64,000 bases of DNA from positions 1 through 64,000 of the forward strand of contig CAWALK010000012.1 in NCBI GenBank assembly GCA_963782915.1. Reading direction: 5' to 3'. The translations under genes and the position numbers were made by a program. Under the pieces are notes generated by a model that saw nothing but the letters and a program-made list of their open reading frames with translations, was not told where the DNA came from and did not search any database. This document shows, one piece after another, positions 6,953 through 42,403 of this stretch. The DNA comes from an uncultured archaeon. GTDB taxonomy: Archaea; Thermoproteota; Bathyarchaeia; Bathyarchaeales; Bathycorpusculaceae. The number at the start of each line of letters is the position of its first letter. Position 1 is the first letter of the stretch.

Positions 6953-6967
6953 AAGACGGTTAAGCCA

Positions 6968-7446: not shown

Positions 7447-7449
7447 TCT

Positions 7450-8118: not shown

Positions 8119-8138
8119 AAAAAGGAGATTGACAAAAA

Positions 8139-9688: not shown

Positions 9689-10206
9689 TTTGATGCCAAA
9701 GCTAACTTTGTTAGAATGTTTGAAGAGTAAAATGAAAAACGAAAAAACTAACTGAATTTGTTTCTTTTTCCCCTAACTCTAAAACCCAACCGTTTTGAAC
9801 CCACAAACGTTGACGTTTGCCTTGCTTTGTGCATTCACGTTAACAGCGGTAAAGCTTAGGCAACCAGAATTTGTCAAAATTAAGAGCATTGAACTAAAAA
9901 ATTTTTGAAGTATTTGCCATAAAAACATCAAAACCCAGAAATGATTTTTAGTTATGTGGTTTTGTTGCTATTGCAATTTGATGCCGTTTATACAACTATA
10001 TGATTTTGCCATATCTCTTCAATTTAGTAGATTTCTTGCTGTAACTCGCTTAAGCCTGAGCTGCCTGATTGGCCTAATTGTTTTCGTATAGGCAATGCTG
10101 AAGTAACTGCCCATGGGGCGAATTCTTATGGTGGGTTAGCCTCTTACATATCGCATCTTGCTATCCACCTTTACTTACCATTTTGATATGGTCAATACTT
10201 GGGAGT

Positions 10207-18880: not shown

Positions 18881-18895
18881 ACGGAGGAGAAAACT

Positions 18896-19438: not shown

Positions 19439-19442
19439 GAAA

Positions 19443-20849: not shown

Positions 20850-20853
20850 ACCG

Positions 20854-22092: not shown

Positions 22093-22098
22093 GGAGAC

Positions 22099-23566: not shown

Positions 23567-24988
23567 TTAGAGCTTCTTGTTTACTGCAAGTTTGGTTTTC
23601 TTACGGTAAACCATCAAAGCAATGATTCCTATAACTACTGCAGTCGCCATAACAACTAACCATATGTTCTGGAAGGGCTTTTGGACGTTGAATTGGATGA
23701 TTTCTGAGGTTCCCTCGTTTCCGAAACTATCTCTGGCATAAACTATGACATTATGTAAACCCTCCTTTAGCCCACTTAAAGTAAAGTTTCCAAAAACAGT
23801 CACTTTTTCTTGCCCATCTAAGCTATACGTTAACTGGGTGAATGGTCTATTGATTGAGATATTAATGGACAGATTATCCGATGAAACTATGCTATTCTGT
23901 GGTGAAAGCACTGAAACAATGGGTGCAACGGTTCCATAGCCAAATGGCGTATACTTTTCGTTGGCTTCGTTCTGCACTCCTTCCAAACCAACTAACTTGT
24001 TTCCACTAAACATATAACGGTAACCGCTTCCCCCCATCATATACACCTCGTCGTCTACCACCGCTAAGGCGAATCCATCGAACATTTTGTGGTTTTTGCC
24101 TCGGGACCAACTGTCATTTACGGGATCATAGGCGGCAATCGCGTCTAATCCAAAAGTGTAGATTCTTTTTGGTGCCCAAATGCCTGTGGTGCTGACGGCT
24201 TCTTGCCCGACGTAAGCATAGTTCGGTGGAGGAGCACAGACAGTCCAATTATTGTTTTGTGGGTCAAAAGATAGTGTCATTTTTCTGTCTTGATAAGTAT
24301 CTTTGGCGCTGACGGTGCCTATCCAGTAGATTTTGTTGTCGAGGGCTGCTGAAATGCCATAGGCTCCGTTATAGGTTACGGGTGGCCAGCCATAGTTGAC
24401 TATTTCACTGTATTGAATGGGGCTTGCTGTTGTCCAGTTGTCAGCCAATGGGTCGTAAACCATGTTGAGGCTTGCGTCAGGTTCGCCTCCTACCAGATAG
24501 ATTTTATTGTTTATGGTATATGCGTCAAGTTGCCATCTGTCTATAGGCATAGGAGACTTAGTTTCCCATGTGTCGGTTGCTGTGTCATATACTTGGTTTA
24601 TGCCACTCGGTTGCCATGCTGTATCAGTCGAATTTTTGGTGTATCCCCCTATGCAGTAGATTTTATTTTGGTAAACTGCGGTGGCAAAATCTCTTCTTGT
24701 GATTGGAACCGGAGCTTTTGTTATCCATGTATTTGTTATGGGATCATACATTTCGTTGACTGTTAGCGTTTTGCCCCATTGGTTGTTTCCCGCTATAGTG
24801 TATATTCTGTCGTTTACTACTGCTATTCCAAGCAAAACTCTTGGTGTAGGCATCGTAGCCATTGTAGTCCATGAATCCTCTTGGGGTTTCTGGGAAGAGT
24901 TAGGTTCATCCAATGCCAAAGCGGGGCTGGCGATTATACTGGGAAAGAAGGCAATAAGTGCAAGGAGCGCTAACGCGGCTTTCTTCAT
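23567..24988 (-). CDS. Secreted Kelch-repeat protein with Ig-like domain and C-terminal TM anchor
   Basis: Signal peptide, repeats (WxTKAPMP, IYCIGG, YDP), YSLDG..HNVIVYARDSFGN, TM plus basic tail. Confidence 0.9.
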   Translation of the reverse strand: MKKAALALLALIAFFPSIIASPALALDEPNSSQKPQEDSWTTMATMPTPRVLLGIAVVNDRIYTIAGNNQWGKTLTVNEMYDPITNTWITKAPVPITRRDFATAVYQNKIYCIGGYTKNSTDTAWQPSGINQVYDTATDTWETKSPMPIDRWQLDAYTINNKIYLVGGEPDASLNMVYDPLADNWTTASPIQYSEIVNYGWPPVTYNGAYGISAALDNKIYWIGTVSAKDTYQDRKMTLSFDPQNNNWTVCAPPPNYAYVGQEAVSTTGIWAPKRIYTFGLDAIAAYDPVNDSWSRGKNHKMFDGFALAVVDDEVYMMGGSGYRYMFSGNKLVGLEGVQNEANEKYTPFGYGTVAPIVSVLSPQNSIVSSDNLSINISINRPFTQLTYSLDGQEKVTVFGNFTLSGLKEGLHNVIVYARDSFGNEGTSEIIQFNVQKPFQNIWLVVMATAVVIGIIALMVYRKKTKLAVNKKL

Positions 24989-25026
24989 GGCTATACACTG
25001 TTATACGTGTGGTCTGTGGTGGATTT

Positions 25027-25065
25027 AGTTCTATTCAAGGAACATGCTGTTCCCGAGTTGGAACA
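25027..25065. promoter_or_regulatory. Tandem GTTC-N8-GAAC operator, copy 1
   Basis: AGTTCtattcaagGAACatgctGTTCccgagttgGAACA. Confidence 0.85.
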
Positions 25066-25099
25066 CCTTTCGCTTGAAGAAGACAAAGGCGTAATTGCC

Positions 25100-26539
25100 T
25101 TAGGTTGATTGTCTCTTTTTTCTATTGAAGTAAACAAGCACCCCGGCAACGCAGACAATAACCGCCACCGTTGCACCCGCAATAATTCCTACTAAGAGCT
25201 GAGCCTCCACAGTAAAGCTGATGGTATCTGAGCCGCCTACGTTTCCAAAGCTATCGACGGCGTAGATTCTTATGTTATGCCAACCCAAAGCAAGCTCTGT
25301 TAAAGTAAAGTTCCCCGTGACAGTTTGGTTGTCTGCGCCGTCTAAACTATAGTATATACGTTGAGTCGGTTTGTTGACTGAATAATTAAAGGAGACATCC
25401 CCTCTAACGTTGACGCTGTTCTGAACTGAGACCGCAGATACCTCAGGTGGGATAGTTCCGTAGCCAAAAGGTATGTATTCTTTATTGTCAGCGGTTATTA
25501 CCTCTCCCGTAAAAATGGCAAAACCTGGAGCAACAACTCTCGTACTCATGTACCTGCCTCCGAAACAGTATATCTTGTCATTTACAACCGCATATCCTGA
25601 GCCATCCTGATATGGAATTTCTGTTCCCGAAGACCAGTTGCGGGTTGCTGGATCATACACTACTCTCACTGGGCTGACAACGTAGATTTGTTTAGGTGCC
25701 CACACGCCTGTTGTAGCAATTGCAGTTCGTAGAATGGCTAGGGCAGGTGGCTGAGTTCCAGCGCTCCAACTTTCATTTATTGGGTTATAAACAAGCATGA
25801 ACTGTCGACGATGATCTGTTGAACGCATATCGCCTATCCAATATATTTTTTCATCAAGCGTTACTGTGGATGCACAGCCAAAGTAGCTGTGGCCAGGTTC
25901 CACGGTAAACTGTGCTATTGACTGGTTGGTTTCTTGGTAGTATTGGATGGATGCTTTCGTGCTCCAGGTGTCCGTTTCTGGGTTGTAAGCCTCGTTGAGG
26001 GTTGCATTCGGGTTGCCGCCTATTACGTAGATTGAGCCATTGGCAACTTCGGCATTCATTCCTGCCCTTGTTATGGTGGGTAGTGGCGCTTTATTTTCCC
26101 AAGTGTCCGTTGCCGGATCATACACTTCGTTTACCCGCAGATACTGCCAATCACTAATTTTGTTATCGTAGACTGCTCCTCCAATATTTCCTCCGATGCA
26201 GTAGATTTTGTTCCGGTAAACTGCTATGGCAAAATCCGCTCGTGATGTTGGCATTGGTGCTTTGGTTGTCCCCGTGTTCGTTGCTGGGTCATACACTTCG
26301 TTGACCTGTAAAACCTTCCATTCTTTGTCGTATCCTCCTAACACATAGATTTTGCTGTTCACGACTGCCACCCGCATACCAAATCTTGGTGTAGGCATGG
26401 GTGCTTTTTCTGTCGATGTATTCTCAGTTACCCCTTCGTTTGTTGGGGAAGATGAACTGCCCAAAACCGGATTAATTACCGTTAAGCTTGAGGTTATTGC
26501 TAAAAAAAGAACTAGTAATGCGATATGTCGTTTATCCAA
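25100..26539 (-). CDS. Secreted Kelch-repeat protein (paralog 2)
   Basis: Same architecture as 23567-24988. Confidence 0.9.
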   Translation of the reverse strand: MDKRHIALLVLFLAITSSLTVINPVLGSSSSPTNEGVTENTSTEKAPMPTPRFGMRVAVVNSKIYVLGGYDKEWKVLQVNEVYDPATNTGTTKAPMPTSRADFAIAVYRNKIYCIGGNIGGAVYDNKISDWQYLRVNEVYDPATDTWENKAPLPTITRAGMNAEVANGSIYVIGGNPNATLNEAYNPETDTWSTKASIQYYQETNQSIAQFTVEPGHSYFGCASTVTLDEKIYWIGDMRSTDHRRQFMLVYNPINESWSAGTQPPALAILRTAIATTGVWAPKQIYVVSPVRVVYDPATRNWSSGTEIPYQDGSGYAVVNDKIYCFGGRYMSTRVVAPGFAIFTGEVITADNKEYIPFGYGTIPPEVSAVSVQNSVNVRGDVSFNYSVNKPTQRIYYSLDGADNQTVTGNFTLTELALGWHNIRIYAVDSFGNVGGSDTISFTVEAQLLVGIIAGATVAVIVCVAGVLVYFNRKKRQST

Positions 26540-26580
26540 CGCTCCTCACCGTATGATTGGTATATGTGGAAGCTCTCTTT

Positions 26581-26619
26581 AGTTCTACCCGAGGAACAAC
26601 CTGTTCCATCGCTGGAACA
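26581..26619. promoter_or_regulatory. Tandem GTTC-N8-GAAC operator, copy 2
   Basis: AGTTCtacccgagGAACaacctGTTCcatcgctgGAACA. Confidence 0.85.
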
Positions 26620-26634
26620 TAGCCCAACGGGCCT

Positions 26635-28080
26635 TTAGGGGACAAATGTTCTCAGGGCGAAGCTTTGCTTGGCTCCCCTGAAATAGACCAGTAAACCGGC
26701 AACAGCAATAGCTGCCACTGCCAACACAACCCCAACAATAATAAACGGAAAAGGCTCTGGCTCTACCGTGAAATAGAATGTTTCTGATATGCCTACGTTT
26801 CCAAACGTGTCAGCTGCATAGACCGTTATGTTGTGTGGTCCTGCCGGTACCTCGGATAGGGTGAGGTTTCCTGTGAATGTGACGTTGTTTTGTTTGTCTA
26901 AGCTGTAACTCATGGATGTTAAGGGTTTGTTTGTGGTGAAAATCAGTGAATCCTTCACTGTAAAGGTGCTATTCTGTGGCATAGCCGAGAGTATCGTAGG
27001 TGGAACAGTGCCGTATTGGGGCGGTGTAAATTGTTCATTATCCCCTGCTGAGGTTATGTATAAGAGTCCCAAGTTTTCGCCTGTGATATGGTATTGGAGA
27101 AAGCCTCCTCCGATAGCGTACACTTTGTCGTTTGCGACGCCAATACCGCAGTCTTCATGATAAAAGAAGTAATGTCTGCTAAGCGTCCAATTGTCCGCAG
27201 AGGGGTCATATGAAGCGGTCATGCTGTTTATGTCAAAGATGTAGATGCGCTTTGGTGCCCAAATGCCTGCTGTAGCGACGGCATTGTGTGGATTGGTGTT
27301 TACGGGGGGTTTTGCTCGTGGGCTCCAACTGTCATTTTCCGGAGTATATATTATAGTGACTATTTGGCTGCTGGAGGATTGGTGTACACGTCCTATCCAG
27401 TAGAGTTTATTGTCAATTGTAGCGGAAGCCCCGTCGCCAGTCGCCAAGAACAGGGTTGGAGAATTTATTTCATGATATTGAACGGGTGCCTTTGTTATCC
27501 AAGTATCCGTTGTTGGATCATAAGCTTCATTGAGAGTTCCGTTAGGTTCGCCACCCACTAGGTATATCATCCCGTTGATGACGTTTGCTTGGAGATGCCA
27601 TCTTGCAGTGGGCATAGGCGCCTTTGTGGTCCATGTGTTAGTGGCTGGGTCATAAACTTCGTTTACTGTGCAGCCAGTTCCCCAGGTTGCTTGGGTGTTA
27701 GAAAAATGCCCATCCAACCCACCGATGCAGTAAATTTTGTCCTGATAAACAGCTATGGCGAAATAGCTTCTATGGGTAGGCATTGGTGCTTTTGTTGTCC
27801 AGATATCTGTTTCTGGGTTATACATTTCGTTGGTGCCGGGGTTTCCACCGCCACCTGTGTTTCCGCCGATACAATAGATTTTGCCATCTACCGTAGCCAT
27901 TGCCAGTCCACTTCTTGCGGTAGGCATAGGTGCCTTTTGAGTCCATGTATTCGCAATTATTTCCTTTGTGAAGTTTGTGTCGCTTGTCCCTGCTGTGGTG
28001 GTAGCTATGGCAGAATTAATTATACTTGCACTTATGGTGATAAAGAATAGAACTAACACCAGGATTTTACTTTTTGTCAT
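26635..28080 (-). CDS. Secreted Kelch-repeat protein (paralog 3)
   Basis: Same architecture; EPFP before the TM helix. Confidence 0.9.
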   Translation of the reverse strand: MTKSKILVLVLFFITISASIINSAIATTTAGTSDTNFTKEIIANTWTQKAPMPTARSGLAMATVDGKIYCIGGNTGGGGNPGTNEMYNPETDIWTTKAPMPTHRSYFAIAVYQDKIYCIGGLDGHFSNTQATWGTGCTVNEVYDPATNTWTTKAPMPTARWHLQANVINGMIYLVGGEPNGTLNEAYDPTTDTWITKAPVQYHEINSPTLFLATGDGASATIDNKLYWIGRVHQSSSSQIVTIIYTPENDSWSPRAKPPVNTNPHNAVATAGIWAPKRIYIFDINSMTASYDPSADNWTLSRHYFFYHEDCGIGVANDKVYAIGGGFLQYHITGENLGLLYITSAGDNEQFTPPQYGTVPPTILSAMPQNSTFTVKDSLIFTTNKPLTSMSYSLDKQNNVTFTGNLTLSEVPAGPHNITVYAADTFGNVGISETFYFTVEPEPFPFIIVGVVLAVAAIAVAGLLVYFRGAKQSFALRTFVP

Positions 28081-29401: not shown

Positions 29402-30884
29402 ATGGGCTGCGGTATCTTTGGAGCAATAAATTACGATAATCAACCTGTTTTCCCCTATGTTTACTGGGGATTAAGGGCACAGAATCACCGAGGACACCAG
29501 TCGCATGGTTTCCTCACATTAACTAATGGAGAATTCAAAGCGTACAAGAGCTTGGATCTTGTACCGAAAGTGAAAAGCAGCGCCATAGACGAATGGTTCG
29601 GGCGACTCCCTGGCTCAATCGGCATCGGCAACGTCCGCTACACCACTTCAGGCAAATGCGACGACAAATCCATCGTGGAAGGCACACAGCCCTTCATAGC
29701 ATCGGCTGATGGAGTACAAGTCGCTTTATCCTTCAACGGCAACATCGTAAACACAGGGTCTCTCAAAAAAGAGATGCAAGACAATTTTGCCAACTTTATC
29801 TATAACTGCGACTCAGACCTTAGTCTGCCACAAATTCCTTCTTGCATACAAACAAAACAAAGACATTGTTGCAGCCGCTAAAGCTGTTATGGAAAGCTTA
29901 GACGGAGCCTTCTCAGTTACAGGCATAACCGGCGACGGCGACTTCTTCGCTTTCAAAGACCCACATGGCATAAAGCCTCTGTGCGCTGGACATGACCCCA
30001 ACGCCAAAACCTATGCGTTTTCCTCAGAAACCGTTAGTTTAGACATGAACAGTTTTGTCCGAGACTTCGAATTAAACCCCGGCGAACTCGTCATCGCCTC
30101 CAAAGACGGTTTTAAACGAATCCAAGTAATCCAGAACCCCAAGCATGCGTTCTGTGCTTTTGAGTTTGCTTATTTTGCAAGACCCGACTCGATTTTCAAC
30201 GGCAAATACGTCTATGAAATCCGAGAGGAATTCGGACGCAACATCGTAAAAGAGTACCCCGAAGTCGTCAAAGAATGTGACATGATTATGTCTGTTCCTG
30301 AAACCGGCGACGACTCCGCCATGGGCGTCCATGAAGAATCAGGGCTAAGATGGGAACGTTGCTCAAGGCGTCACCGCTACGTAACTGAACGTGCTTTCAT
30401 CTTGCTTAATGCGGAGCGGTATTCGACGATCGATAAGAAAATTAACATTTTAGGCTCCAAAGTCGCCGGCAAAAACGTCATCATCACCGAAGACAGCATC
30501 GTAAGGGGCGACACTACCAAAGTCATTATTGAGAAGATGCGTCAGGCAGGAGCCAAAAAAGTGTATGTCTCCGTAACTTTCCCAAGAATCATCGGTCCCT
30601 GCTTCTATGGCATCGACATGTCCAGCTACGGTCAACTTGTCGGCAGCAGGCACGATGCGGCGGAAATCGCTAAAATCATCGGCGCCGACGGCGTCCTCTA
30701 CCAATCACTCGAAGGCTTAATCCGAGCCACAGGCAAAACTGAAGACCAACTCTGCTTAGCCTGCGTCACAGGCAAATATCCCACGCCCTGCGCACAAAAA
30801 ATCGCTGAAGCCATGAAAAAACGGTTCCAAGAAGGCTACGAAGAAAAGGGCAGAATCTACGAGAACGAAGAAGTTCAGCCGTAA
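29402..30884 (+). CDS. purF: Amidophosphoribosyltransferase (frameshift near 29820)
   Basis: MGCGIFG, QNHRGHQ, RYTTSG, FNGN, CAFEFAYFARPDS, EDSIVRGDT, PCFYGID, CLAC. Confidence 0.95.
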
Positions 30885-30935
30885 CCGCTATAAAGCGACC
30901 CTTCACACAGTAGAGCAAGTAACGGTGTATCTTGG

Positions 30936-32351
30936 ATGGAAAAACTAGGTGTCCTACTGGTTTCTTACGGTGCAAGAGAAGTCGCTATGGCAGATACGCT
31001 TCTGAGAAGCAAAAACTATCAAGTGGAACTCTACGTCGCCGACAAACAATGCAACCCCTACAACGCTAAGCATGCCACAAAACACGCGGTCATTCCAAGT
31101 TTGGACGTTAATGAGATTTGCAAGTTTGCAGAGGCAAACAAGGACAAACTCAATTTTGTTTTAGTAGGCTCCGAGAATCCCATCATTAAGGGCATCCGTG
31201 ACTTAATCGAATCCAAAGTCGGCATCCCAGTTATCTGCCCCAAAAAGGCATACGCCATCGAAGAAAGCAAAGTAGCACAACGTGTGCTCTTCGAAGAGAT
31301 AGCGCCCGAAGCCAATCCAAGATTCAAAGTTTTCAATCCATCCGATTACAAAACCGAAGCCGACGCAAAAGTTGCCGTTTACAAGTGGCTCGACGAATTA
31401 GACAACCAAGCCGTAGTCAAACCCGACAAACCCGCATTGGGCAAAGGCGTCGGCGTCTGGGGAGACCACTTCGCAAACCGAGAACAACTCTGGGAACACT
31501 TCCTATCCAACTTCAAATACAGCTCAGTCATCATCGAGGAAAAAGTTCCAGGCGAAGAATCCAGTTGCATGGGCTTCTGCGATGGCAAACACTTCATCCC
31601 ATTGCCAGACACACGCGACTACAAACGCGCATTTGACGATGACCGTGGACCAAACACTGGCGGCATGGGTTCCTACAAGGACGCCAAAGATTACCTGCCA
31701 TTCCTAACAGCAGAGGACCGCAAAGCAGAATTGGCGTTAGCCGACAAAGTCTTCAGGGGCTGGAAAGCAAAAATCCCCGACGAAACCGCACTCCGCGGAG
31801 TCCCACTATACCTCGCCTTTATGCACACGGGCAAAGGCATCAAAATCTTAGAAATTAACAGTCGACCTGGCGACCCCGAAATCATGAACCTGCTCCCAAT
31901 CATAAAAGACGACTTCGCAGATGTCTGCCTCAGAATGGTAGAAGGCAACCTCAAGAGCGTCGCCATGGAAAAGTCAGCGACCGTGTTAACCTACAAGGTT
32001 CCAGCTGACTATGGCGGATACGCAGATGTGCACCCTAATTTGGTGGATAAAGCCACAGTCAATTCTCCCGTTGACCTCTCAAAAGCCGAAGCCCTAACCA
32101 AAAAATACGGCGACAAAATCCGCATCTACCCAGGGTCAATGGAACTCAGAGACGGCAAAAACTACGCCCTCAAATCCAGAGCCATCGGCATCTTAGGCAT
32201 CGGTGACAGCATCGAGGAAGCCCGCCAAATCAGCCAAGAAGGAGCCAAAGCCATAACAGGCGGCGCACTCTGGAACCGCACCGACGTCGCAGCCAAAAAC
32301 CACATCCAAAAAAGCGTCACTAACATGGAGCAGTTGAGGAACAAGGCTTGA
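30936..32351 (+). CDS. purD: Phosphoribosylamine-glycine ligase
   Basis: IEESK, VVKPD..GKGV, DYKRAFDDDRGPNTGGMGS, LEINSRPGDPE. Confidence 0.95.
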   Translation: MEKLGVLLVSYGAREVAMADTLLRSKNYQVELYVADKQCNPYNAKHATKHAVIPSLDVNEICKFAEANKDKLNFVLVGSENPIIKGIRDLIESKVGIPVICPKKAYAIEESKVAQRVLFEEIAPEANPRFKVFNPSDYKTEADAKVAVYKWLDELDNQAVVKPDKPALGKGVGVWGDHFANREQLWEHFLSNFKYSSVIIEEKVPGEESSCMGFCDGKHFIPLPDTRDYKRAFDDDRGPNTGGMGSYKDAKDYLPFLTAEDRKAELALADKVFRGWKAKIPDETALRGVPLYLAFMHTGKGIKILEINSRPGDPEIMNLLPIIKDDFADVCLRMVEGNLKSVAMEKSATVLTYKVPADYGGYADVHPNLVDKATVNSPVDLSKAEALTKKYGDKIRIYPGSMELRDGKNYALKSRAIGILGIGDSIEEARQISQEGAKAITGGALWNRTDVAAKNHIQKSVTNMEQLRNKA

Positions 32352-33430
32352 AGCGCCTCTTCGTCTCCGACTGCGAAGGACCCATCAGCAAAAACGACAA
32401 CGCCTTTGAGTTAGCGGAGAATTTTATTCCTAACGGCGACAAACTCTTCGCCAATATAAGCAAATACGACGATGTACTCGCCGATATTATTCATAAACCC
32501 GATTACTCGGCGGGCAGCACCCTAAAACTGATTTTGCCCTTCTTCAAAGCATACGGCATAACCGACCGCCAAATGGAAGAGTTCTCAGAACAAAACATCG
32601 TCTTAATCGCCAACAGCCAAACCACCCTGCAGCATGTGCAGCAGATAGCCGACGCCTTCATCGTTAGCACCAGCTACGAACACTACATCCGAGCCCTATG
32701 CAAAGCAGTTGATTTTCCATACAAGAACACTTACTGCACAAAAGTAAGCCTCGACAAAACCCCCATAACACAACAAGAAACAGAACAACTCAAAGTAATC
32801 GCGCAGGAAATCGCCCAAATGCGCATAATCGACATCCCCGCAAGCGTAACCTGCATTGAAGATTTTTCGCACTGCGACCAAACACTCATTCAGCGGTTGG
32901 ATGAAATTTTCTGGAGTGAAATCCCCAAAATGTTCGTGGGCAAATTGCTCACTGACGTGGTAACCGTTGGTGGGGAACAGAAAGCAGAATCCATCCGTGA
33001 CGCAGCAAAACGCCTCCACGCCGAACTTGCGGATGTTATGTATGTGGGCGACAGCATAACCGACGTAGAAGCCTTCAAACTGGTGCGGGCTAACGGCGGC
33101 TTATCGGTATCCTTCAACGGCAACAACTACGCCGTCAAAAACGCTGAAGTAGCAGTACAATCCGAAAGCAACATAGTAACCGCTGTAATCGCCGACTTAT
33201 TCTGCAAATACGGCAAAGAACAAACCATCAAAGCCCTGAGCGCATGGAACATTGAAACCCTAAAACAAAACCACGTAGACGAAGCATTACTCAAACAACT
33301 CACCAAACTATACCCAGAAACCCTGCCGAAGGTTCAAATAGTCACAACCAAAAATATGGACATAATAGTCAAAGAGAGCAGCGCGTTCAGAAAACAAGTT
33401 AGAGGCATAAGCATAGGAAGATTGGGTTAA
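32348..33430 (+). CDS. HAD-superfamily phosphohydrolase, EhaR-like
   Basis: Motif I SDCEGP..DNAFEL, STSY, YVGDSITDVEA, SFNGNNYA; start overlaps the purD stop. Confidence 0.8.
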   Translation: MKRLFVSDCEGPISKNDNAFELAENFIPNGDKLFANISKYDDVLADIIHKPDYSAGSTLKLILPFFKAYGITDRQMEEFSEQNIVLIANSQTTLQHVQQIADAFIVSTSYEHYIRALCKAVDFPYKNTYCTKVSLDKTPITQQETEQLKVIAQEIAQMRIIDIPASVTCIEDFSHCDQTLIQRLDEIFWSEIPKMFVGKLLTDVVTVGGEQKAESIRDAAKRLHAELADVMYVGDSITDVEAFKLVRANGGLSVSFNGNNYAVKNAEVAVQSESNIVTAVIADLFCKYGKEQTIKALSAWNIETLKQNHVDEALLKQLTKLYPETLPKVQIVTTKNMDIIVKESSAFRKQVRGISIGRLG

Positions 33431-34336
33431 TTGAATAAAAAAATTGATGATACTTACATTGAAGCATTCGCAGGCATTTTCTGCCGCGTAATCGTTACTG
33501 CAGACGATTTGGAAACCGTGCGGAAAGCAGCTGAAGATGCAACCGCAACACCATCCGTTGTGATTGGCAGAACCGAGGGCGGCATAGAAAAATACCTCAC
33601 CGAAAAACAAACCCCCGACGGACGCCAAGGCGCCATTTTACAGTTCTGGGGCGAAATCAACCCAAAAAAGACCTTCCCCGAATCACTCAAGAAATTCGAG
33701 ACTGAACTCTCTTACCGCATCCGCCAAGACATACTCGTTAAACCCTTCACAGCAGTCTACGATGCACTGCCAAGATCTGAAGGCAAACTCGACATGATGG
33801 AGCGTGTAGGTCACTGCGGCGACGGCTACGAATGGGTAGAGCAACGTAATGGCAGAGAAGTCATCGTTGTCCCCTTGATGGTTCCAGACTTCGTTATCGA
33901 ACGCTACATTGGCTATGCCCGCGGAGTTATGGGCGGCAACTTCTGGATAATGTGCACCACCAAAGACGCCCTCAAAGAAGCAGGCGCAAGAGCATTAAAG
34001 GCAATTCACAAAGTGCATGGCGCAGTAACCACCTTTGACATCTGCTCAGCAGGTTCCAAACCCGAAACCCATTTCCCACAGATTGGTCCCACAACCAACC
34101 ACCTCTATTGCCCCTCACTCAAGAAACGTTTAGGCAAGGAATCATTAGTTCCAAACGGAGTGGGCTACATCGCAGAAATCGTCTACGACGGAATGTCCCT
34201 TGATGCAATTAAAGAAGCCACTAAAGTAGGAATCAAAGCAGTCGTAGACATAGAAGGCGTAGTACGTGTCTCCGCAGGCAACTATGGCGGCAAACTAGGC
34301 GAATATAAAATACAATTAAATGAGTTGTTTGTATGA
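33431..34336 (+). CDS. Formylmethanofuran:H4MPT formyltransferase-like paralog (EhaS-like)
   Basis: [39 protein letters not shown]; [10 protein letters not shown] and GHCGDG differ from canonical Ftr. Confidence 0.88.
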
Positions 34337-35248
34337 CAAAGTTTGATGTTATCGGTTTCGGCGCACTCAACGTTGACACATTGCTAAAAGTTGACAAAAT
34401 CGCTGGTGCTGAAGAGGAAAGCTTCATCCGCGACTACACAGAAGCCTGCGGCGGTTCAGCAGCAAACACCATCGTTGGGTTAGCGCGTCTTGGCTGCAAA
34501 GTGGGCTTCATCGGCAAAGTCGCAGATGACCACGAAGGCAACCTCCAAATTGACTGCTTCAAAGCCGAAGGCGTAAACACCGACGGCATCATCCACTCGC
34601 CAAAAGGCAAAAGCGGCGTCTGCCTCGGCTTCGTAGACAAAAAAGGCGCAAGAGCACTCTACATTAACCCAGGCGTAAACGACATCATCGAACCCAGAGA
34701 ACTCCAATATGAATACGTTTCACAAACCGAAATATCTGCACCTGTCTTCCTTTGTTGGCGAAAAATCTTTCCGAGCCCAAAAGAAAGTCCTAAGCGGCTT
34801 GCCTGAAGGCGTCAAAATCAGCTTCGACCCAGGCTCCCTCTATGCACAGAAGGGCTTCTCAGCAATCGAACCCATAATCCAAAACAGCTTTGTGATGATG
34901 CCAAACGCCGTAGAACTTAAACTCATAACTGGCGAATCGGACATTCCCGAAGGCGCAGCTATGCTAATCGGTGCAGGCGTTAAAATCGTCGCAGTTAAAC
35001 TGGGCGATAAAGGCTGCTATGTCACTAACGGCGAAGAAAAGAAAACTATAGCGCCCTTCAAGGTTCCAGTAGTCGACACAACAGGCGCAGGTGACGCATT
35101 CAACGCAGGCTTCCTCTACGGTTTAATCCAGAACAGAACATTGGGCGAGTGCGGTAGAATAGGCAATTTTGTGGCGGCTAAAAGCGTAATGAAGATGGGT
35201 GCGCGCGACGGTTTGCCAAAAGAAGAAGATTTAGCATACCTCGGTTAG
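34333..35248 (+). CDS. PfkB/ribokinase-family kinase, EhaT-like (frameshift near 34725)
   Basis: [29 protein letters not shown]. Confidence 0.9.
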
Positions 35249-35289
35249 CATGTCGCTATCCAACCGCTTTCTCTTCCTTTTCAACTCTT

Positions 35290-35439
35290 TTATGCAATCG
35301 GTAAGGCAATAACCTGCCTTTTTCTCTTGTTTACGGTATGGTCAAGACCGCAAACTGGGCAAAAGACTATTTCGTGGTCAGAAAAGTTCTCGGGGTGAAA
35401 ATCGAATTTTCCGTCGCATCCAACACATTTTACCTTCAA
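35290..35439 (-). CDS. Small zinc-ribbon protein, 49 aa (below the ORF-track cutoff)
   Basis: MKVKCVGCDGKFDFHPENFSDHEIVFCPVCGLDHTVNKRKRQVIALPIA; TTG start with GGAG upstream. Confidence 0.7.
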   Translation of the reverse strand: MKVKCVGCDGKFDFHPENFSDHEIVFCPVCGLDHTVNKRKRQVIALPIA

Positions 35440-35463
35440 CTCGGTTTTCTCCTTACTCCTTAC

Positions 35464-35646
35464 TTAGAATTCGAAGTACTCCAGTTCTAAGCCTCTGCCT
35501 TTATTCACGGTAACTAAGTTGCCTCCACATACTGGGCATGGAACAAGCTGGTATTCCCCGACTTGGTCATACTCAAAGCTTTTTTCACATAGTGGGCAGG
35601 TGAATTTTATTGGGGTGGATTGAAGTGTTTGCATTTTGCTCTCCAC
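35464..35646 (-). CDS. Small LysW-like zinc-ribbon protein
   Basis: CPLC..CPVCG; ends ELEYFEF, without EDWGE. Confidence 0.75.
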   Translation of the reverse strand: MESKMQTLQSTPIKFTCPLCEKSFEYDQVGEYQLVPCPVCGGNLVTVNKGRGLELEYFEF

Positions 35647-35737
35647 TCTTTAATTGTCTATTTAGAGATAAGAGAAATATGTTAGTAGAAAATAGAAACT
35701 ATATAGAAAGATGAGTGTTCTAAAAGAGGAGCGGTAA

Positions 35738-35813
35738 ATGCTTCCACATCCACACCGCGGTGGTTTGTGCATGGAGCTATGTTGGGTGTGTGGAGAAAAA
35801 ACGATTATCCCAA
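35738..35813 (+). repeat. Dispersed CCACATCCACAC element, partial copy A
   Basis: Homologous to 56691-56865 and the reverse complement of 62401-62581. Confidence 0.7.
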
Positions 35814-35993
35814 CAGTTATCAAAATTCGGTTACCTGCTTGAGGAATCAGCCACAACCATCCTGCAATAAGGAAGGGACGCAGATGCTAAAAAGCAATCA
35901 AAAACACAAGCTGTTGGTTGTTGTTGTGTATAGCAGCTTTTCGCCAACAACACCCTGAGAAAAAACAAAAGAGGGGCTAAAAAAGTAGAAAGC

Positions 35994-36863
35994 CTAAATT
36001 TCGCTTCCAACTGGTACAGCAAACGTACTCCCAAATGTGCTCTTCGAACAAGTTTTGGTTAGTTTGTTGATGATGCTTTGGAAAATGTATTTTCCGTGAC
36101 CATACTGAAGCATCTGGCTTTCTTTTGTCCAGCCTGGCAGCTGCCACCAATACATCGCCCTCTCAGGATGCGGCATCAAACCGAAGATGTTGCCTTCCTT
36201 GTTGCATATGCCTGCTATGTCATAGAAGCTGCCGTTGGGGTTTTGGGGGTATTTGCCTTCTGCTACTGTGCCGTCTTTGCTGCAGTAACGGAAAACAAGC
36301 ATGTCCTCGTCAACGAGCTTCTTGAGCAATGCTTCTTCTTTTTCTTTGGGGAATAGTAGTCTGCCTTCGCCATGCGCAATTGGTAACTGGATGGTTTTGC
36401 CTTGTGGAATGCCGTCGGTGAAGGCGCATTTGCCTTTGTTCTCCTGTTTGAGGTAAACCCATTTACATTTGAAACCTGCTGGTTCATTAGTGGTCAATGT
36501 AGCTTCGGGGTAATCGCTGATGCCCTCGAAACCTGGTAGCAAACCGTATTCAACCAAGATTTGGAAGCCGTTACATATGCCAAGGATGGGTCTGCCTTCG
36601 TCAACGAAGCTTTGGATTTCTTTGCCCAGATTCGCTGAGAGGTGCCTTGCGAAGATGACGCCTGAACGCACATAGTCACCATACGAGAAGCCGCCTGGGA
36701 AAACCAGCATGCTATAGTCGAGTAGGTTGCGGCGTTTGATCATGTCGCTGACTTGGACAACTTCAGCTTGTACACCGAGTTCAGTGAATGCTCTTTGGGT
36801 TTCGGCGTCGCAGTTAGTTCCGCCAACGCGTAGTACGCAGACTTTGATGTCTTCGTGGTTCAT
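35994..36863 (-). CDS. purQ: FGAM synthase glutaminase subunit
   Basis: GTNCD, PGGFSYGDY, LGICNGFQ, IAHGEG, NPNGS, MPHPER. Confidence 0.97.
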   Translation of the reverse strand: MNHEDIKVCVLRVGGTNCDAETQRAFTELGVQAEVVQVSDMIKRRNLLDYSMLVFPGGFSYGDYVRSGVIFARHLSANLGKEIQSFVDEGRPILGICNGFQILVEYGLLPGFEGISDYPEATLTTNEPAGFKCKWVYLKQENKGKCAFTDGIPQGKTIQLPIAHGEGRLLFPKEKEEALLKKLVDEDMLVFRYCSKDGTVAEGKYPQNPNGSFYDIAGICNKEGNIFGLMPHPERAMYWWQLPGWTKESQMLQYGHGKYIFQSIINKLTKTCSKSTFGSTFAVPVGSEI

Positions 36864-39247
36864 TGTGTTGTCTCCTCTGGGTTGAGGGTTTTTTTCCAGC
36901 TTTGCCGCAGCTTATCCAGCGGTGCATCAACGACGATTTCGCCGTTTAAGCCAGTTATGCTTAGTTTTGGTTCTTTGGTTACTATGCCGATTTGGCTGCA
37001 GTTTTTGCCTTTCATAAGTTCTTCGAAGTCCTCTTTGTCCCTTTGTGCGACTTCGATTAGGAAGCGGCTGTTGGATTCTGAGAACAGCACAAAATCGTTG
37101 CGCGCTACATCTTTGACGGGTACCATTTGCAGGTTAATTTCTAAGCCTAAGCCGCTTGCAAACGCCATCTCCGCCGCAGCCACCGCCAATCCGCCCTCGG
37201 AGAGGTCATGGCACGATTTCACCATGCCAAAATCGATGGCTTTAGTAACCACATTAAACGTGCGTTTAGCTTTGCCGCCGTGCACTTTAGGCACAGACGC
37301 GCCTAAGTAACCTTTGAGTTTGTAATATTCGCTGCCGCCTAGTTCAGGATAGGTTTCGCCTATGATGTAGATGGGGTTGCCTGCTTCTTTGAGGTCAACG
37401 GAGACGGTTAATTCGATGTTGGGGTTAACGCCGATTGCTGTGATGAGCAATGTTGGGGTTACGGGTCCGAGTGGGGATTCGTTGTAGAGGCTGTCTTTGC
37501 CTGAGATAAACGGTGTTTTGAACATGACTGCAAAGTCGTAGCATGCTTCACAGGCGCGTACTAGTGAGCCGAGGCGTTCTGTTTTTTCTGGGTTGCCCCA
37601 GGTGAAGTTGTCTAAGATGGCGATTCTTCTGCCGCCTACTGCGATGTTGTTGCGTATGGCTTCGTCGATTGCTGAAGCTGCCATCCAGTATGGATCGATT
37701 TTGCCGTAGTTTGGGTTCATGCCGCAGCTGATGACTAAGCCTTTGATGGAGTCATCGACTGGTTTGAGCACTGCCGCATCGTTGGGTCCAGCATAATCGC
37801 CTTGCAATGGCTTGAGTAGGGTGTTGCCTTTGACTTCATGGTCGTAGGTGCGGATTACTGCTTCTTTGCTGGCAATGTTGGGCGCCGCAAGCAGTTGCAG
37901 AAGTGTTTCTGTGAGGTCAGCTGGCTCCGCAAACTCTGGTTCCACAAGTTTGGGTGTTTCGATTGTGGCGATTTTAGTGGTTTCACATGGGCTGAAGAGG
38001 AATTCCATGTCGATGTCTGAGACTAACTCGCCGTTGTAGCTGAGCTGCAATCGTCTCTCTGGAATAAGTTGACCAATAGCTGTTGCGAGGACATCTTCTC
38101 TTTCGAAAATCGTCATAACCCGCTCCAAGTTCTCGGCAGGTATAGTCATGAGCATGCGTTCTTGTGATTCAGAAAGATAAATCTCCCAAGGCGACAATCC
38201 CTGATATTTCAAGGGAACTTTGCCAAGGTCAACCGCGACTCCGCAGTTGAAGCGTTCACCTGTTTCGCCCACAGCTGAGGATAAGCCTCCGCCGCCTATG
38301 TCAGTTATAGCTGAGCCCAATTGTAAGTCTCGGATTGCAACCACTGCCCGTTTGACTTTCTCTTCCTCGATGGGATCGGCGATTTGGACTGCTGGGCGGC
38401 TGATTTCCTCTGATTTTTCGGTGAGTTCGGCTGATGCGAAGGTTACGCCGTGGATGCCGTCGCGTCCTGTTTTTCCGCCTGATAATACTATGTAGTCGCC
38501 GACTTTGGCGCTTTTAACGTATTTGTCGAGTGGGAGTAGTCCGATGCAGCCGCAGTAGACGACGACGTTTCCTGTGTAGGATTCGTCGAAGTATATTGCG
38601 CCGTTAACGGTTGGGATGCCCATGTTATTGCCATATGCGCTGATGCCTGCGGTGACGCCCCGATAGATGTATTTGGGGTGTTTTACGCCTGCAGGTAACT
38701 TGTTATAATCATAATCTAGGGGACCAAAACCTAAGACGTCTGTGCATGCGATTGGGTCTGCCCATACGCCTAAGATGTCTCGGATGACGCCGCCGACACC
38801 TGTTGCTGCACCGCCAAAAGGCTCCACCGCTGAGGGGTGATTGTGGGTTTCCACTTTCGCTGCGATGCCATAGCCCTTATCGAATTTGACAATCCCCGCG
38901 TTGTCTTCAAAAACGCTAAAGCACCATGGCGCCTTAATTTCCTTCGTTGCTTTGGCTAGGTATGTTTTGAATAGGCTGTTGATTTCTTTGCCGTCGAGTT
39001 TGATTTTGCCTTTGAAGGTTTTGTGGCAGCAGTGTTCACTCCACGATTGGCTAATCGTTTGCAACTCGACGTCGGTTGGGTTGCGGTTTTCTTTTTTGAA
39101 GTAAGCTTGAATAACCGATAGTTCCTCTGCACTGAAGCCCAATGCGAGTTCGCTGTTGATTTCAGCTAACTGCTCGGGTGTGGCTTTGGCTGTTTGGATT
39201 TCTAGAACAGGGCTGTTTTTGCGCTGTGCAATGAGGTCGGCGTTCAT
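36860..39247 (-). CDS. purL: FGAM synthase subunit PurL
   Basis: WSEHCCHK, ETHNHPS, GGAATGVGG, SESQERM, YDHEV, HDLSEGG. Confidence 0.98.
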   Translation of the reverse strand: MNADLIAQRKNSPVLEIQTAKATPEQLAEINSELALGFSAEELSVIQAYFKKENRNPTDVELQTISQSWSEHCCHKTFKGKIKLDGKEINSLFKTYLAKATKEIKAPWCFSVFEDNAGIVKFDKGYGIAAKVETHNHPSAVEPFGGAATGVGGVIRDILGVWADPIACTDVLGFGPLDYDYNKLPAGVKHPKYIYRGVTAGISAYGNNMGIPTVNGAIYFDESYTGNVVVYCGCIGLLPLDKYVKSAKVGDYIVLSGGKTGRDGIHGVTFASAELTEKSEEISRPAVQIADPIEEEKVKRAVVAIRDLQLGSAITDIGGGGLSSAVGETGERFNCGVAVDLGKVPLKYQGLSPWEIYLSESQERMLMTIPAENLERVMTIFEREDVLATAIGQLIPERRLQLSYNGELVSDIDMEFLFSPCETTKIATIETPKLVEPEFAEPADLTETLLQLLAAPNIASKEAVIRTYDHEVKGNTLLKPLQGDYAGPNDAAVLKPVDDSIKGLVISCGMNPNYGKIDPYWMAASAIDEAIRNNIAVGGRRIAILDNFTWGNPEKTERLGSLVRACEACYDFAVMFKTPFISGKDSLYNESPLGPVTPTLLITAIGVNPNIELTVSVDLKEAGNPIYIIGETYPELGGSEYYKLKGYLGASVPKVHGGKAKRTFNVVTKAIDFGMVKSCHDLSEGGLAVAAAEMAFASGLGLEINLQMVPVKDVARNDFVLFSESNSRFLIEVAQRDKEDFEELMKGKNCSQIGIVTKEPKLSITGLNGEIVVDAPLDKLRQSWKKTLNPEETTQ

Positions 39248-39495
39248 TTCTGTTCAACAACGCTGATTGTGTAGTTGTCTTTAGTTGGGTTAGCCAGTAG
39301 GCGTTTGCTCATTTCTTCCGCTTTCGCCTTCGCTTCAGCAGGAGAGGTTGCTTCCAAAAAGACAGTGTAGACTTTGCTGACATCAACGGCTTCTACTCTA
39401 TAGCCGAGTTCGATGAGGAGTCTTGCGGTGGTTTCGCCTTCCGGGTTGCTGTGTCCGGGTTTGAGGCTGACTTCGATTTTGGCAGCGTATTTCAT
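39244..39495 (-). CDS. purS: FGAM synthase subunit PurS
   Basis: VSLKPG..NPEG..RLLANP. Confidence 0.95.
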   Translation of the reverse strand: MKYAAKIEVSLKPGHSNPEGETTARLLIELGYRVEAVDVSKVYTVFLEATSPAEAKAKAEEMSKRLLANPTKDNYTISVVEQK

Positions 39496-39553
39496 AGTCC
39501 TCTAAATTAAGCAATCGGGATTTAAACGCTTTCGCCACAAACACTGCAAAACT

Positions 39554-40636
39554 CTACGATAGAATCATGTGTTTCTTACCGTGCTCTATCTCGACGACGC
39601 GTTCTTTGTTGGTTACTTTGCCGATTCGCTGTGGTGTGATGCTGTCCTGTTCCAGTACATTCATGGCTTTGTCGATGTCGCTTTTGTCGACGATGATGCC
39701 AAAGCCCCAGCCCATGTTAAAGGTTTTGAACATTTCCTCGTCAGTTACTGTGTAACCTAATTCGGCGGCGGTTTTCTGGATTAAGCCAAAGATTGGTTGG
39801 GGTGTGAAATTGGTGAATTTGAAGCCGATGCCCGGTGAGAAGTTGGCGAGGTTGTTGAATTTGGTGTAGCCGTCGCCTGTAATGTGGACTGCGCCTTTAA
39901 CCTTGACTTCCCGTGCTAACTTGAGCAGCGCTTTAACGTAGATTTTGGTGGGTTCCAAAACTTCAAGCGCTACTTCGCGGTCTAAACCCTCTGGGATGTC
40001 GGTCGCGTCGTATTTGCCTCCCCACTGCTTGAATAGAATCTTGCGTACAAGCGTGATGCCATTGCTGTGGACGCCGCTGCTGGCTAATCCGATGATGGGG
40101 TCGTCTGGTTTTATGTCTTCGCCGGTTATGATGTTTTGGCGCTCCACTTTGCCCACGCAGGAGGCAACCATGTCAAAACCTGAGTTGGGTTTAATGCCCT
40201 TGATGATTTCTGCGACGTCACCTGTTTCGCCGTTCACTATTGGGCATTCGGATTGCTCTGCGCCCGAGATTAAGCCTTTGAGCCATGCGTTGACGAGTTT
40301 AGGTTCACTCGCTACTGCGTGAATGTTATCTGCGAGGGCGAGCGGTGTTGCGCCGCTGCGTATAACATCATTTACCACCATAGCTACGGCGTCGATGCCG
40401 ATGGTGTCATATTTTTCGGCGAGTTCAGCGATTAGGACTTTAGTGCCGACACCTTCGATCTCAAGGTCCAAAAACGTGTCTTCACCGACTGGAAAAATGT
40501 TACTGTAGGGCAAATGCATGATGCCGCCGAAGCCAATGTGCTTATAGGTTTCTTTGAGGCTTGAGAGTGCTTTTTTGGATTCGACGCGTTGGGCTCGGTT
40601 GACGCCGGCGTCTGTGTAGGTGTAGTTTTTGGGCAT
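39554..40636 (-). CDS. purM: AIR synthetase
   Basis: YTDAGV, EGVGTK, GIDAVAMVVND, GET, SSGVHSNG, HITG, TFNMG; likely start at 40636. Confidence 0.96.
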   Translation of the reverse strand: MPKNYTYTDAGVNRAQRVESKKALSSLKETYKHIGFGGIMHLPYSNIFPVGEDTFLDLEIEGVGTKVLIAELAEKYDTIGIDAVAMVVNDVIRSGATPLALADNIHAVASEPKLVNAWLKGLISGAEQSECPIVNGETGDVAEIIKGIKPNSGFDMVASCVGKVERQNIITGEDIKPDDPIIGLASSGVHSNGITLVRKILFKQWGGKYDATDIPEGLDREVALEVLEPTKIYVKALLKLAREVKVKGAVHITGDGYTKFNNLANFSPGIGFKFTNFTPQPIFGLIQKTAAELGYTVTDEEMFKTFNMGWGFGIIVDKSDIDKAMNVLEQDSITPQRIGKVTNKERVVEIEHGKKHMILS

Positions 40637-40918
40637 ACTGGTTCGCCTGTACGCTAATTGTGTAGGTTTCTGTCTGATAACGATTACGTTTGGGGCTGGT
40701 GTCTGTGGATGCTGGGTTGTTTGATTTTTGGTTTTTCTAGTCTTAGAAGAAGGCAGAGACCTCCTATACCCTTCTTCTTCCCGTGGGCTTTGCTGACGGC
40801 TGCTTTTTGGGTTCTGCATTTGCTTTGGGTTGAAGGTTGGTTATGGAGCAAACCGCAAACAGAAGGCAGCAGGGCAACGTTTTAGTGCACATAACCAGCA
40901 CAATACACTTTGATTCAC

Positions 40919-42327: not shown

Positions 42328-42403
42328 GCGGCTGTAGTCTAGCTCGGTAGGACTCCAGCTTCCCAAGCTGGCTACCCGGGTTCAAATCCCGGCAACCGCA
42401 CCA
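42328..42403 (+). tRNA. tRNA-Gly(CCC) with encoded CCA
   Basis: Anticodon arm CCAGC-TTCCCAA-GCTGG, T arm CCGGG-TTCAAAT-CCCGG, 3' ACCA. Confidence 0.96.

Follow-up and report, generated by a model that had tools for sequence, protein, structure and literature searches.

A three-gene module inside a purine biosynthesis cluster of a Bathyarchaeia genome probably supplies the conversion of glycinamide ribonucleotide (GAR) to N-formylglycinamide ribonucleotide (FGAR) in archaea without PurN and PurT. The module encodes a HAD-superfamily protein, a diverged paralog of the formyltransferase Ftr (referred to as Ftr2) and a PfkB-family kinase, and Ftr2 is the predicted GAR-step formyltransferase. It lies in a stretch of 64,000 nt (referred to as the window), in which the locus under study spans positions 29402-40636. 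The support in hand consisted of the gene identities, a complementary distribution, synteny, and an exchange of the formyltransferase within the cassette. An initial annotation of the window had proposed the triad as an alternative route of GAR formylation; this proposal was supported, and passed every computational test applied.

The genome (3.28 Mb, 25 contigs, 93.5% complete) was searched as a whole. The absence of purN and purT for step 3, noted in the initial annotation, extended genome-wide: the PurN family (PF00551) had 0 matches, and the best match to the PurT model (TIGR01142) reached 41 bits (cut-off 502). Neither PF00551 nor the ATP-grasp PurT was matched by any module protein (HAD, Ftr2, or PfkB), and PurH was not found in the genome. 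PurF, PurD, PurL/S/Q, PurM, PurP (two tandem genes), and FwdC were present. PurP covers the formylation of 5-aminoimidazole-4-carboxamide ribonucleotide (AICAR), and the one-carbon (C1) pathway of tetrahydromethanopterin (H4MPT) is present. GAR formylation is left without a known enzyme. A second, canonical Ftr (Ftr1), whose presence elsewhere in the genome was among the checks suggested with the proposal, was found on contig C20; the Ftr Pfam model scored 183 bits with this protein versus 148.5 bits with the window copy.

Five plus-strand genes converge on four minus-strand genes, as had been described in content, order, and strand, and the latter (purM-S-L-Q) all scored above their NCBIfam cut-offs:

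29402..30884, plus strand: purF, amidophosphoribosyltransferase; split open reading frames (ORFs) 29402-29881 and 29787-30884, one extra base near 29821/29822
30936..32351, plus strand: purD, GAR synthetase of a diverged type (PF01071, PF02844, PF02843)
32348..33430, plus strand: EhaR-type HAD-superfamily protein, putative phosphatase, 360 amino acids (aa); weak Pfam HAD matches
33431..34336, plus strand: Ftr2 (EhaS type), diverged Ftr paralog, 301 aa, proposed GAR-step formyltransferase (PF01913 and PF02741)
34333..35248, plus strand: PfkB/ribokinase-family kinase (EhaT type; PF00294); ORFs 34333-34806 and 34709-35248, extra base near 34729-34734
35994..36863, minus strand: purQ (NF002252, 314.4 bits, cut-off 298)
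36860..39247, minus strand: purL, canonical FGAR amidotransferase and hence a consumer of FGAR (TIGR01736, 683 bits, cut-off 525.75)
39244..39495, minus strand: purS (TIGR00302, 67.2 bits, cut-off 39)
39554..40819, minus strand: purM (TIGR00878, 271 bits, cut-off 236.35, residues 67-404)

The ORF coordinates confirmed the tight junctions described for the last four plus-strand genes: the purD stop and the TTG start of the HAD gene share 4 bases, the TTG start of Ftr2 directly follows the HAD stop, and Ftr2 and PfkB overlap as ATGA. The three motifs originally quoted for the Ftr-like protein were found in its translation. The window purD scored 234.9 bits against TIGR00877, below the cut-off of 288. 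The true start of purM may be downstream of the listed ATG, as the family match begins only at residue 67. No hydrogenase subunits were found among the window ORFs annotated, which covered a part of the ORFs of the window.

Ftr2 and its distribution

Ftr2 contains both Ftr domains (PF01913, 146.7 bits; PF02741, 177.7 bits) over its full length (residues 4-299). It scored above the cut-off of the subfamily model NF002554 (330.9 versus 297 bits) and below that of the equivalog model TIGR03119 (227.9 versus 292.6 bits). In a tree of representatives, Ftr2 fell into a 17-member clade apart (SH-aLRT 99) from a 38-member clade containing the Ftr1 of the same genome, and a second tree, in which 52 Ftr2-type sequences represented many gene contexts, gave the identical Ftr2/Ftr1 split, with the pur-linked copies all in one clade. 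The Ftr-like protein therefore neither clusters with canonical Ftr nor is the only copy in the genome, two outcomes that together would have refuted the proposal according to the initial annotation. Invariant residues specific to the Ftr2 clade were R98 (in 'RIRQ'), C129 (in 'CGDG'), W73, W172, C205, G219, P220, and C227; the position of C129 is Phe in 84% of Ftr1 and that of P220 is Ala in 88%. E249 was invariant in 33 Ftr2 sequences and aligned with the Glu of 'YEIVINGL' in the Archaeoglobus fulgidus enzyme (1M5H), which we take to be the catalytic glutamate, Glu245 of Methanopyrus kandleri Ftr.

The few representatives of the Ftr2 clade that carried names belonged to Thermoproteota, Aenigmarchaeota, and Promethearchaeota, and no methanogen EhaS was identified among them. 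A protein atlas search with Ftr2 returned generic Ftr clusters only. Long Ftr-family proteins checked for fusions with HAD, PfkB, or Pur proteins had only FwdA-like and FwdC-like parts fused, and the predicted complex of Ftr2 with the HAD protein (score 0.00) had no bearing either way. A long-branched group on the Ftr2 side of the tree (P0298 and P0312) included proteins named 'hypothetical protein' by NCBI from metagenome-assembled genomes (MAGs) of Promethearchaeota (Asgard). Many genomes annotate Ftr2 as ordinary Ftr, which can mislead inferences on C1 metabolism.

The distribution of Ftr2 was examined in an evenly drawn sample of 121 Bathyarchaeia genomes (the class sample), searched with Ftr2, PF00551, and the PurT and PurD models. 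With the protein query, Ftr2-type matches had at least 276 bits and at least 48% identity, and Ftr1-type matches at most 193 bits and at most 43%. Four Ftr2 assignments came from fragments, three of them made by high identity (54-71%) and one (G101) held apart as ambiguous. The counts in genomes with and without purD were as follows:

Ftr2 only: 41/97 with purD, 2/24 without
Ambiguous Ftr2 fragment: 1/97 with purD, 0/24 without
PurN-family only: 36/97 with purD, 3/24 without
PurT-like only: 12/97 with purD, 0/24 without
Ftr2 and PurT-like: 1/97 with purD, 0/24 without
None of the three: 6/97 with purD, 19/24 without

Ftr2 and a PurN-family gene were found together in 0/121 genomes. The mutual exclusivity of the triad with purN and purT, which the initial annotation had named as support for its proposal, was observed among the 44 triad-bearing Bathyarchaeia (PurN-family in 0/44, a weak PurT-like match in 1/44). 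Since the purD-less genomes mostly had none of the three and 14 of them kept Ftr1 without Ftr2, Ftr2 tracks the purine pathway and not the use of H4MPT. The state varied inside coded families: f10 contained Ftr2, PurN, and PurT genomes, and f20 contained Ftr2 and PurN-like genomes. Of the six purD-bearing genomes in which all three were missing, G053, G074, G079, and G105 were 61-90% complete, and G042 and G108 were 94-98% complete. Five Ftr2 genomes were checked for C1 genes: FwdC was above the cut-off in 4/5 (G089 gave a weak match) and Mch was present in 5/5. The presence of FwdC in these genomes was uninformative as to whether formyl-H4MPT or formyl-methanofuran is the formyl donor.

In a second sample of 301 Thermoproteota (profile scores: Ftr2-type at least 345, Ftr1-type at most 283), 36 genomes outside Bathyarchaeia had Ftr. 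Among the 32 of these with purD, PurN was found in 14, PurT in 16 (no overlap), Ftr2 in one, and none of the three in one, which was 72% complete; the 4 purD-less Ftr genomes also had none. The sole Ftr2 carrier, G368 (95% complete), had neither PurN nor PurT, and its Ftr2 adjoins Ftr1 and CO dehydrogenase/acetyl-CoA synthase (CODH/ACS) genes, with an overlapping upstream ORF of 374 aa that is weakly HAD-like around motifs III-IV.

Some genomes of the class sample carry two PurN-family genes. At locus L123 (G111:C22:4000-9000, 908-4721), two different PurN-family genes (TIGR00639 scores of 81 and 151 bits) lie between purD and FolD. Two PF00551 genes are likewise adjacent in G048. For the genomes of family f17, the lower-scoring type is the sole PF00551 type listed.

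The genomic neighborhood of Ftr2 supported the same link to purine synthesis. A search with a six-sequence Ftr2 alignment gave 80 close loci (identity of at least 74%), and HAD-Ftr2-PfkB was downstream of purD in 76/80, the other four ending at contig edges. Among 20 more distant Bathyarchaeia loci (Ftr2 45-68% identical), purD-HAD-Ftr2-PfkB was contiguous in 16. The four variants had two ORFs before PfkB, purD-HAD divergent from Ftr2-PfkB, HAD-Ftr2-PfkB at purF without purD, and a split in which Ftr2-PfkB lies 16 kb from purD-HAD, respectively. Metagenome contigs found with distant Ftr2 sequences had pur genes beside Ftr2 in 11/17; they included three loci with purQ-purL-purF-purD-Ftr2 without a nearby HAD or PfkB (L131, L132, and L134) and three with HAD-Ftr2 adjoining oppositely oriented purD and purF, and in 3/17 Ftr2 lay among unrelated genes. 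The pur synteny that the initial annotation had likewise named as support was found, and recurred in several different gene arrangements. Two contigs with Bathyarchaeia-type Ftr2 (L063 and L090; 79% and 74% identical to that of the window) were filed under bacterial MAGs (Limnocylindrales and Desulfobacterales), probably by mis-binning.

Several observations weigh against a dedicated role of Ftr2 in GAR formylation, or against the completeness of its exclusivity with PurN and PurT. The PurT-like matches (175-303 bits) were all below the curated cut-off, and most PurN-family matches were below the cut-off of TIGR00639 (the PurN equivalog), though PurN was their best family. Kin genomes are not independent, so that evolutionary events are fewer than the counts suggest. 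G001 had Ftr2 together with a PurT-like match of 175 bits, and G067 (Ftr2 at a contig edge) and G081 had Ftr2 without purD. In the available text of Chadwick 2022 (PMC9012536), ANME-2a/b (anaerobic methanotrophic archaea) carry both Ftr2 and PurN, an exception to strict exclusivity. Ftr2 passed the Ftr cut-off of NF002554 and keeps the aligned Glu, and it could, judging from its sequence, still catalyze the ordinary Ftr reaction. G031 (96% complete) had FwdC and Mch, and its sole Ftr-family gene was an Ftr2-like copy in a pur cassette, 48% identical to that of the window; this copy may serve the C1 pathway as well, or be an intermediate form.

These last observations also bear on the improbable alternative that Ftr2 is a second Wood-Ljungdahl isoenzyme of Ftr and that GAR is formylated by some other enzyme, such as a PurP paralog using formate and ATP. 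In addition to the NF002554 score, the conserved Glu shared with solved Ftrs, and the Ftr2-like copy as the only one in G031, two PurP copies were found in 29/44 Ftr2 genomes compared with 4/12 PurT-only genomes. However, an isoenzyme would not be expected to exclude PurN-family genes and nearly always PurT, to be missing from the 14 Ftr1-bearing purD-less genomes, to be linked with purD in several gene arrangements, or to be replaced in its cassette by a PurN-like gene (see below). A single PurP, already needed for AICAR formylation, was found in 14/44 Ftr2 genomes, and two PurPs also occur in PurT genomes. On these counts, a PurP paralog as the missing step-3 enzyme was not supported and retains only a small residual probability.

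PurP also enters a second alternative, in which the module would free formate from formyl-H4MPT or formyl-methanofuran, like the Fhc complex of methylotrophs, to feed formate-dependent PurP. FhcD is an Ftr homolog (PDB 6S6Y match, E = 2.9e-25), PurP was present in 44/44 Ftr2 genomes, and Methanothermobacter needs formate for purine C2, according to the available part of Kaster 2011. A formate supplier should, however, accompany PurT, and the PurT genomes, in which formate is needed for two steps, were without Ftr2 and HAD. The ribokinase-type kinase would have no role, the PurN-like/FolD cassette, which is without PurP, would be unexplained, and step 3 would still be unfilled. We regard this alternative as very improbable.

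The PurD proteins suggested a further, highly improbable scheme, in which the formyltransferase acts on free glycine and FGAR arises directly when a diverged PurD joins N-formylglycine to phosphoribosylamine. The PurDs encoded next to the HAD module, together with those of family f14, mostly scored 220-270 bits, below the TIGR00877 cut-off, compared with 300-505 bits in most other PurN-family and PurT genomes. This correlation was not strict, as G031 and G368 pair Ftr2 with high-scoring PurDs (397 and 385 bits, respectively), G087 carries both PurD types, and family f14 has the diverged PurD without HAD; furthermore, HAD and PfkB would be left without a role. A function in the biosynthesis of H4MPT or methanofuran was set aside: the module tracks purD and not Ftr1, and is retained where the formyltransferase is of the folate type and accompanied by FolD.

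Exchange of the formyltransferase and the possible route

By profile search, the EhaR-type HAD was found in 48/121 genomes of the class sample, namely, in 44/44 Ftr2 genomes and in G002, G010, and G034 (all three of family f7) and G028 (family f20). It was found in 0/35 of the other PurN-family genomes and in 1/13 PurT-like genomes (G001, which has Ftr2). The four additional genomes were without Ftr2, and had the most diverged PF00551 proteins of the class sample (42-66 bits). The genes ran purF-purD-PurN-like-HAD-PfkB-FolD in G034 and G028; in G002 and G010, HAD, PfkB, and FolD were close together and distant from purD. The coordinates of the former two were as follows:

L117 (G028:C17:7600-27000), 5756-12478, minus strand: folate-type cassette
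L125 (G034:C8:1-10000), 3341-10000, minus strand: folate-type cassette

Among solved proteins, the PurN-like protein of this cassette best matched GAR transformylases, and it retained the catalytic N-x-H and Asp. Its N-terminal G-x-G-S/T-N loop was replaced by G-R-D-A-A; in Escherichia coli PurN, this loop holds the phosphate of GAR. The pairing of the same HAD and kinase with two unrelated formyltransferases was an unexpected extra finding. Since purD, HAD, and PfkB are kept while the formyltransferase family and the enzyme of C1 supply change, HAD and PfkB go with the acceptor side and not with the C1 carrier. The exchange points to a role of the cassette in the formylation of a glycinamide intermediate, and the idea of phosphatase, formylation, and kinase acting in series is made more credible by the PurN-like/FolD cassettes.

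The HAD protein has the motifs D8-x-E10-G-P, S107-T-S, K212, and G234-D-S-I-T-D239; D8 was conserved in at least 90% of sequences, and S107, K212, and G234-D-S-I-T-D239 were invariant in 28 sequences. These supply the Asp nucleophile, the Ser/Thr of motif II, the Lys, and the acidic GDxxxD motif expected of a HAD phosphatase. Its predicted model (predicted local distance difference test, pLDDT, of 94.9) confirmed the HAD fold. The best structural match was 1Y8A (AF1437; Foldseek template modeling (TM) scores of 0.82/0.94), followed by phosphoserine phosphatases (TM of approximately 0.45). Homologs of this protein are named 'energy-converting hydrogenase A subunit R' by JGI. In the kinase, N12, D14, G39-G40, N44, and T247-G-A-G-D251 were conserved in 20 intact homologs; they make up the N-x-D, GG, and N motifs for binding ribose and the catalytic GAGD motif of the ribokinase family. 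Its profile matched ribokinases with E = 1e-39 to 1e-48, the nearest solved proteins being YdjH, ribokinases, adenosine kinase, and MJ0406 (the nucleoside kinase of Methanocaldococcus jannaschii), and the best NCBIfam matches were ribose-1-phosphate kinases and ribokinase. All these enzymes phosphorylate the 5-hydroxyl group of ribofuranose, with a substituent allowed at C1.

The substrate, donor, and reaction order of the module are those that we infer from these data. Ftr2 would take a formyl group from the H4MPT/methanofuran pool (N5-formyl-H4MPT or formyl-methanofuran) onto the amino group of the glycinamide moiety. The glycinamide amine of GAR is a primary amine, like that of methanofuran, and, with the Ftr reaction lying near equilibrium, a transfer from N5-formyl-H4MPT to a primary amine would be feasible. 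The likeliest way for HAD and PfkB to take part, to which we give somewhat less than an even chance, would be a route at the level of the riboside. HAD would take the 5'-phosphate off GAR, the formyltransferase would formylate the resulting glycinamide riboside, and the ribokinase-type PfkB would restore the 5'-phosphate with ATP, yielding FGAR for the canonical PurL. Such a route would cost one ATP, as does PurT, and would render a near-isoenergetic formyl transfer irreversible. It fits the gene order, the strict co-occurrence of HAD and Ftr2, the loop-less PurN-like protein of the folate-type cassette, the type of kinase, and the requirement of PurL for FGAR. The more general proposition, that step 3 passes through glycinamide riboside and N-formylglycinamide riboside in both cassettes, with either Ftr2 or the phosphate-loop-less PurN-like enzyme (using formyl-folate) as the formylating enzyme, is a possible reading of these gene sets that we hold tentatively. 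To our knowledge, no detour by dephosphorylation and rephosphorylation is known in purine synthesis.

The riboside route also has points against it. The HAD protein has Glu instead of Asp two residues past the nucleophile, and the term 'glycinamide riboside' did not occur in the full-text literature searched. L131, L132, and L134 have purD-Ftr2 without a nearby HAD or PfkB, G368 is without an adjacent PfkB, and the clade-specific R47 and R98 of Ftr2 could bind a phosphate. We rate the route below an even chance because of these Ftr2 operons and because of the arginines.

The same observations favor a serious, if unlikely, alternative within the same core claim, namely, that Ftr2 formylates the nucleotide GAR directly and that HAD and PfkB are accessory and not obligatory, acting in regulation or in the recapture or proofreading of dephosphorylated GAR and FGAR. 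In purQ-purL-purF-purD-Ftr2 operons, Ftr2 is the only module gene nearby; G368 has a HAD-like gene and Ftr2 with no PfkB beside them; R47 and R98 are specific to the clade; and direct formylation would be simpler, with no ATP cost. However, HAD was present in 44/44 Ftr2 genomes, HAD and PfkB were retained with a PurN-like protein that has lost the G-x-G-S/T-N loop, and the three module genes overlap or abut at their start and stop codons. The metagenome loci are fragments, and HAD and PfkB may be located elsewhere in those genomes.

Assembly breaks and neighboring features

The content and order of the plus-strand gene run in the initial annotation were correct; it overlooked one frameshift in purF and another in PfkB, which break both genes into two ORFs. 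Either break corresponds to one extra base relative to four close relatives: the base at 29822 was absent from a public contig approximately 93% alike, and that at 34734 from one approximately 98% alike. The two pieces of purF matched TIGR01134 with 66 and 243 bits (residues 3-144 and 16-332, corresponding to model positions 1-133 and 132-432), and the two PfkB ORFs covered positions 4-139 and 174-301 of PF00294. In related genomes, purF was a single ORF in 72/73 loci reaching purF, and PfkB in 74/77. The breaks are probably assembly indels rather than gene decay, since other genes of this assembly are also split: cdhA consists of overlapping ORFs 16531-18210 and 17855-18880, and one of the two tandem PurP genes (G000:C18:213112-214758, minus strand) is broken into two matches by a probable indel.

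Other features of the window were as follows:

16531-23532, plus strand: CODH/ACS cluster with cdhA-like, cdhC, and two cdhD-family genes
23567-28080, minus strand: three tandem Kelch-repeat paralogs of 473-481 aa
35290-35439 and 35464-35646, minus strand: two small ORFs of 49 and 60 aa
40910-41743, plus strand: protein with a CAP12/Pycsar-type TIR domain (PF10137, 76.6 bits)
42328-42403, plus strand: tRNA-Gly (CCC)

The two small ORFs are downstream of purQ on the same strand as purQ, within the gap between the converging operons, and contain two CxxC pairs each (zinc-ribbon-like). The TIR-domain protein directly adjoins purM, and a homolog was found at the same place in approximately 20/80 related loci. 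The tRNA was the sole match in an Rfam scan of 28-43 kb. A scan for bacterial-type promoters and terminators, ill-suited to an archaeal host, gave signals no higher than the shuffled expectation.

Relation to known systems

The euryarchaeal distribution of Ftr2, PurN, and PurT was drawn from two sources only, Brown 2011 (PMC3261824) and Chadwick 2022 (PMC9012536), each in its available text. In the former, GAR formyltransferase was not found in two Archaeoglobi, M. kandleri, and four Methanobrevibacter, Methanosphaera, and Methanothermobacter species, and Methanothermobacter thermautotrophicus is a purine prototroph. In the latter, a divergent Ftr2 clade is described in ANME-1, ANME-2a/b, Archaeoglobales, M. 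kandleri, and Methanothermobacter marburgensis, and ANME-1, Archaeoglobales, and Methanobacteriales are without PurN and PurT, with the step-3 enzyme unidentified; in the text available, the two observations are reported and not connected with each other. No link of Ftr2/EhaS, EhaR, or EhaT to GAR formylation was found in the full-text literature, subscription journals and supplements aside, and neither was a description of the ligand contacts of Ftr or PurN.

By the JGI naming of the HAD protein and the descriptions in the available part of Kaster 2011, the module consists of the same three families as EhaR, EhaS, and EhaT, encoded at the end of the Methanothermobacter eha operon; that text gives the families of EhaS and EhaT, and in it no function is assigned to the ehaR/S/T products. 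The eha genes are at the end of a hydrogenase operon, whereas those of the window and of the examined relatives are in purine clusters, and no hydrogenase genes were found among the ORFs annotated at these loci. The Eha hydrogenase is reported to refill the methanogenic C1 cycle when intermediates go to biosynthesis. The proposed function, if true, would assign a role to three uncharacterized 'hydrogenase subunits' and to the solved protein 1Y8A. It would also link C8 of purines directly to the C1 pool of the Wood-Ljungdahl/H4MPT pathway and close a gap in metabolic models of methanogens, methanotrophs, and Bathyarchaeia. Ftr2 is a specific and testable candidate for the long-missing archaeal GAR formyltransferase, backed by a near-complementary profile and synteny. 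The riboside route, if true, would add two intermediates new to purine synthesis, a third, non-homologous solution for GAR formylation, and perhaps a detour through nucleosides in a textbook pathway. It would also account for the presence of ehaR, ehaS, and ehaT in the operon of the Eha hydrogenase.

AF1437 (1Y8A), a structural genomics target from A. fulgidus, is the sole solved homolog of the HAD protein (profile E = 1e-48, 27% identity). The two proteins have in common the D-x-E-G-P, STSY, GDSIxD, and FNGNxYA motifs and a C-terminal RG...G-LG tail; AF1437 is shorter (332 aa). Ftr2 and the solved Ftrs (PDB 1FTR, 1M5H, and 1M5S) share the same two-lobe domain pair with approximately 40% identity (E = 1e-46 to 1e-52). 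Ftr2 differs by an insertion of approximately 9 residues, with W73 lying in a short insertion, by its location in pur operons, and by its exclusion of PurN and PurT, and H4MPT or methanofuran is proposed to be replaced as its acceptor by a glycinamide (ribo)nucleoside or nucleotide.

The net reaction proposed for the module, in which a pterin carrier donates the formyl group that turns GAR into FGAR, is the same as that of PurN. PurN has a fold unrelated to Ftr and uses 10-formyl-tetrahydrofolate as the donor, and genomes with canonical PurN are without the EhaR-type HAD. PurT fills the same step in folate-free archaea and consumes one ATP, as the proposed riboside route would; it differs in being an ATP-grasp enzyme that uses free formate, and it excludes the module in 12/13 PurT-like genomes. 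A precedent for the proposed order of reactions is found in cofactor pathways such as riboflavin synthesis, in which ARPP is dephosphorylated by a HAD phosphatase ahead of the lumazine synthase step, and riboflavin kinase follows later. By analogy, the riboside route would follow the same logic of a phosphatase, a reaction on the dephospho-form, and a kinase.

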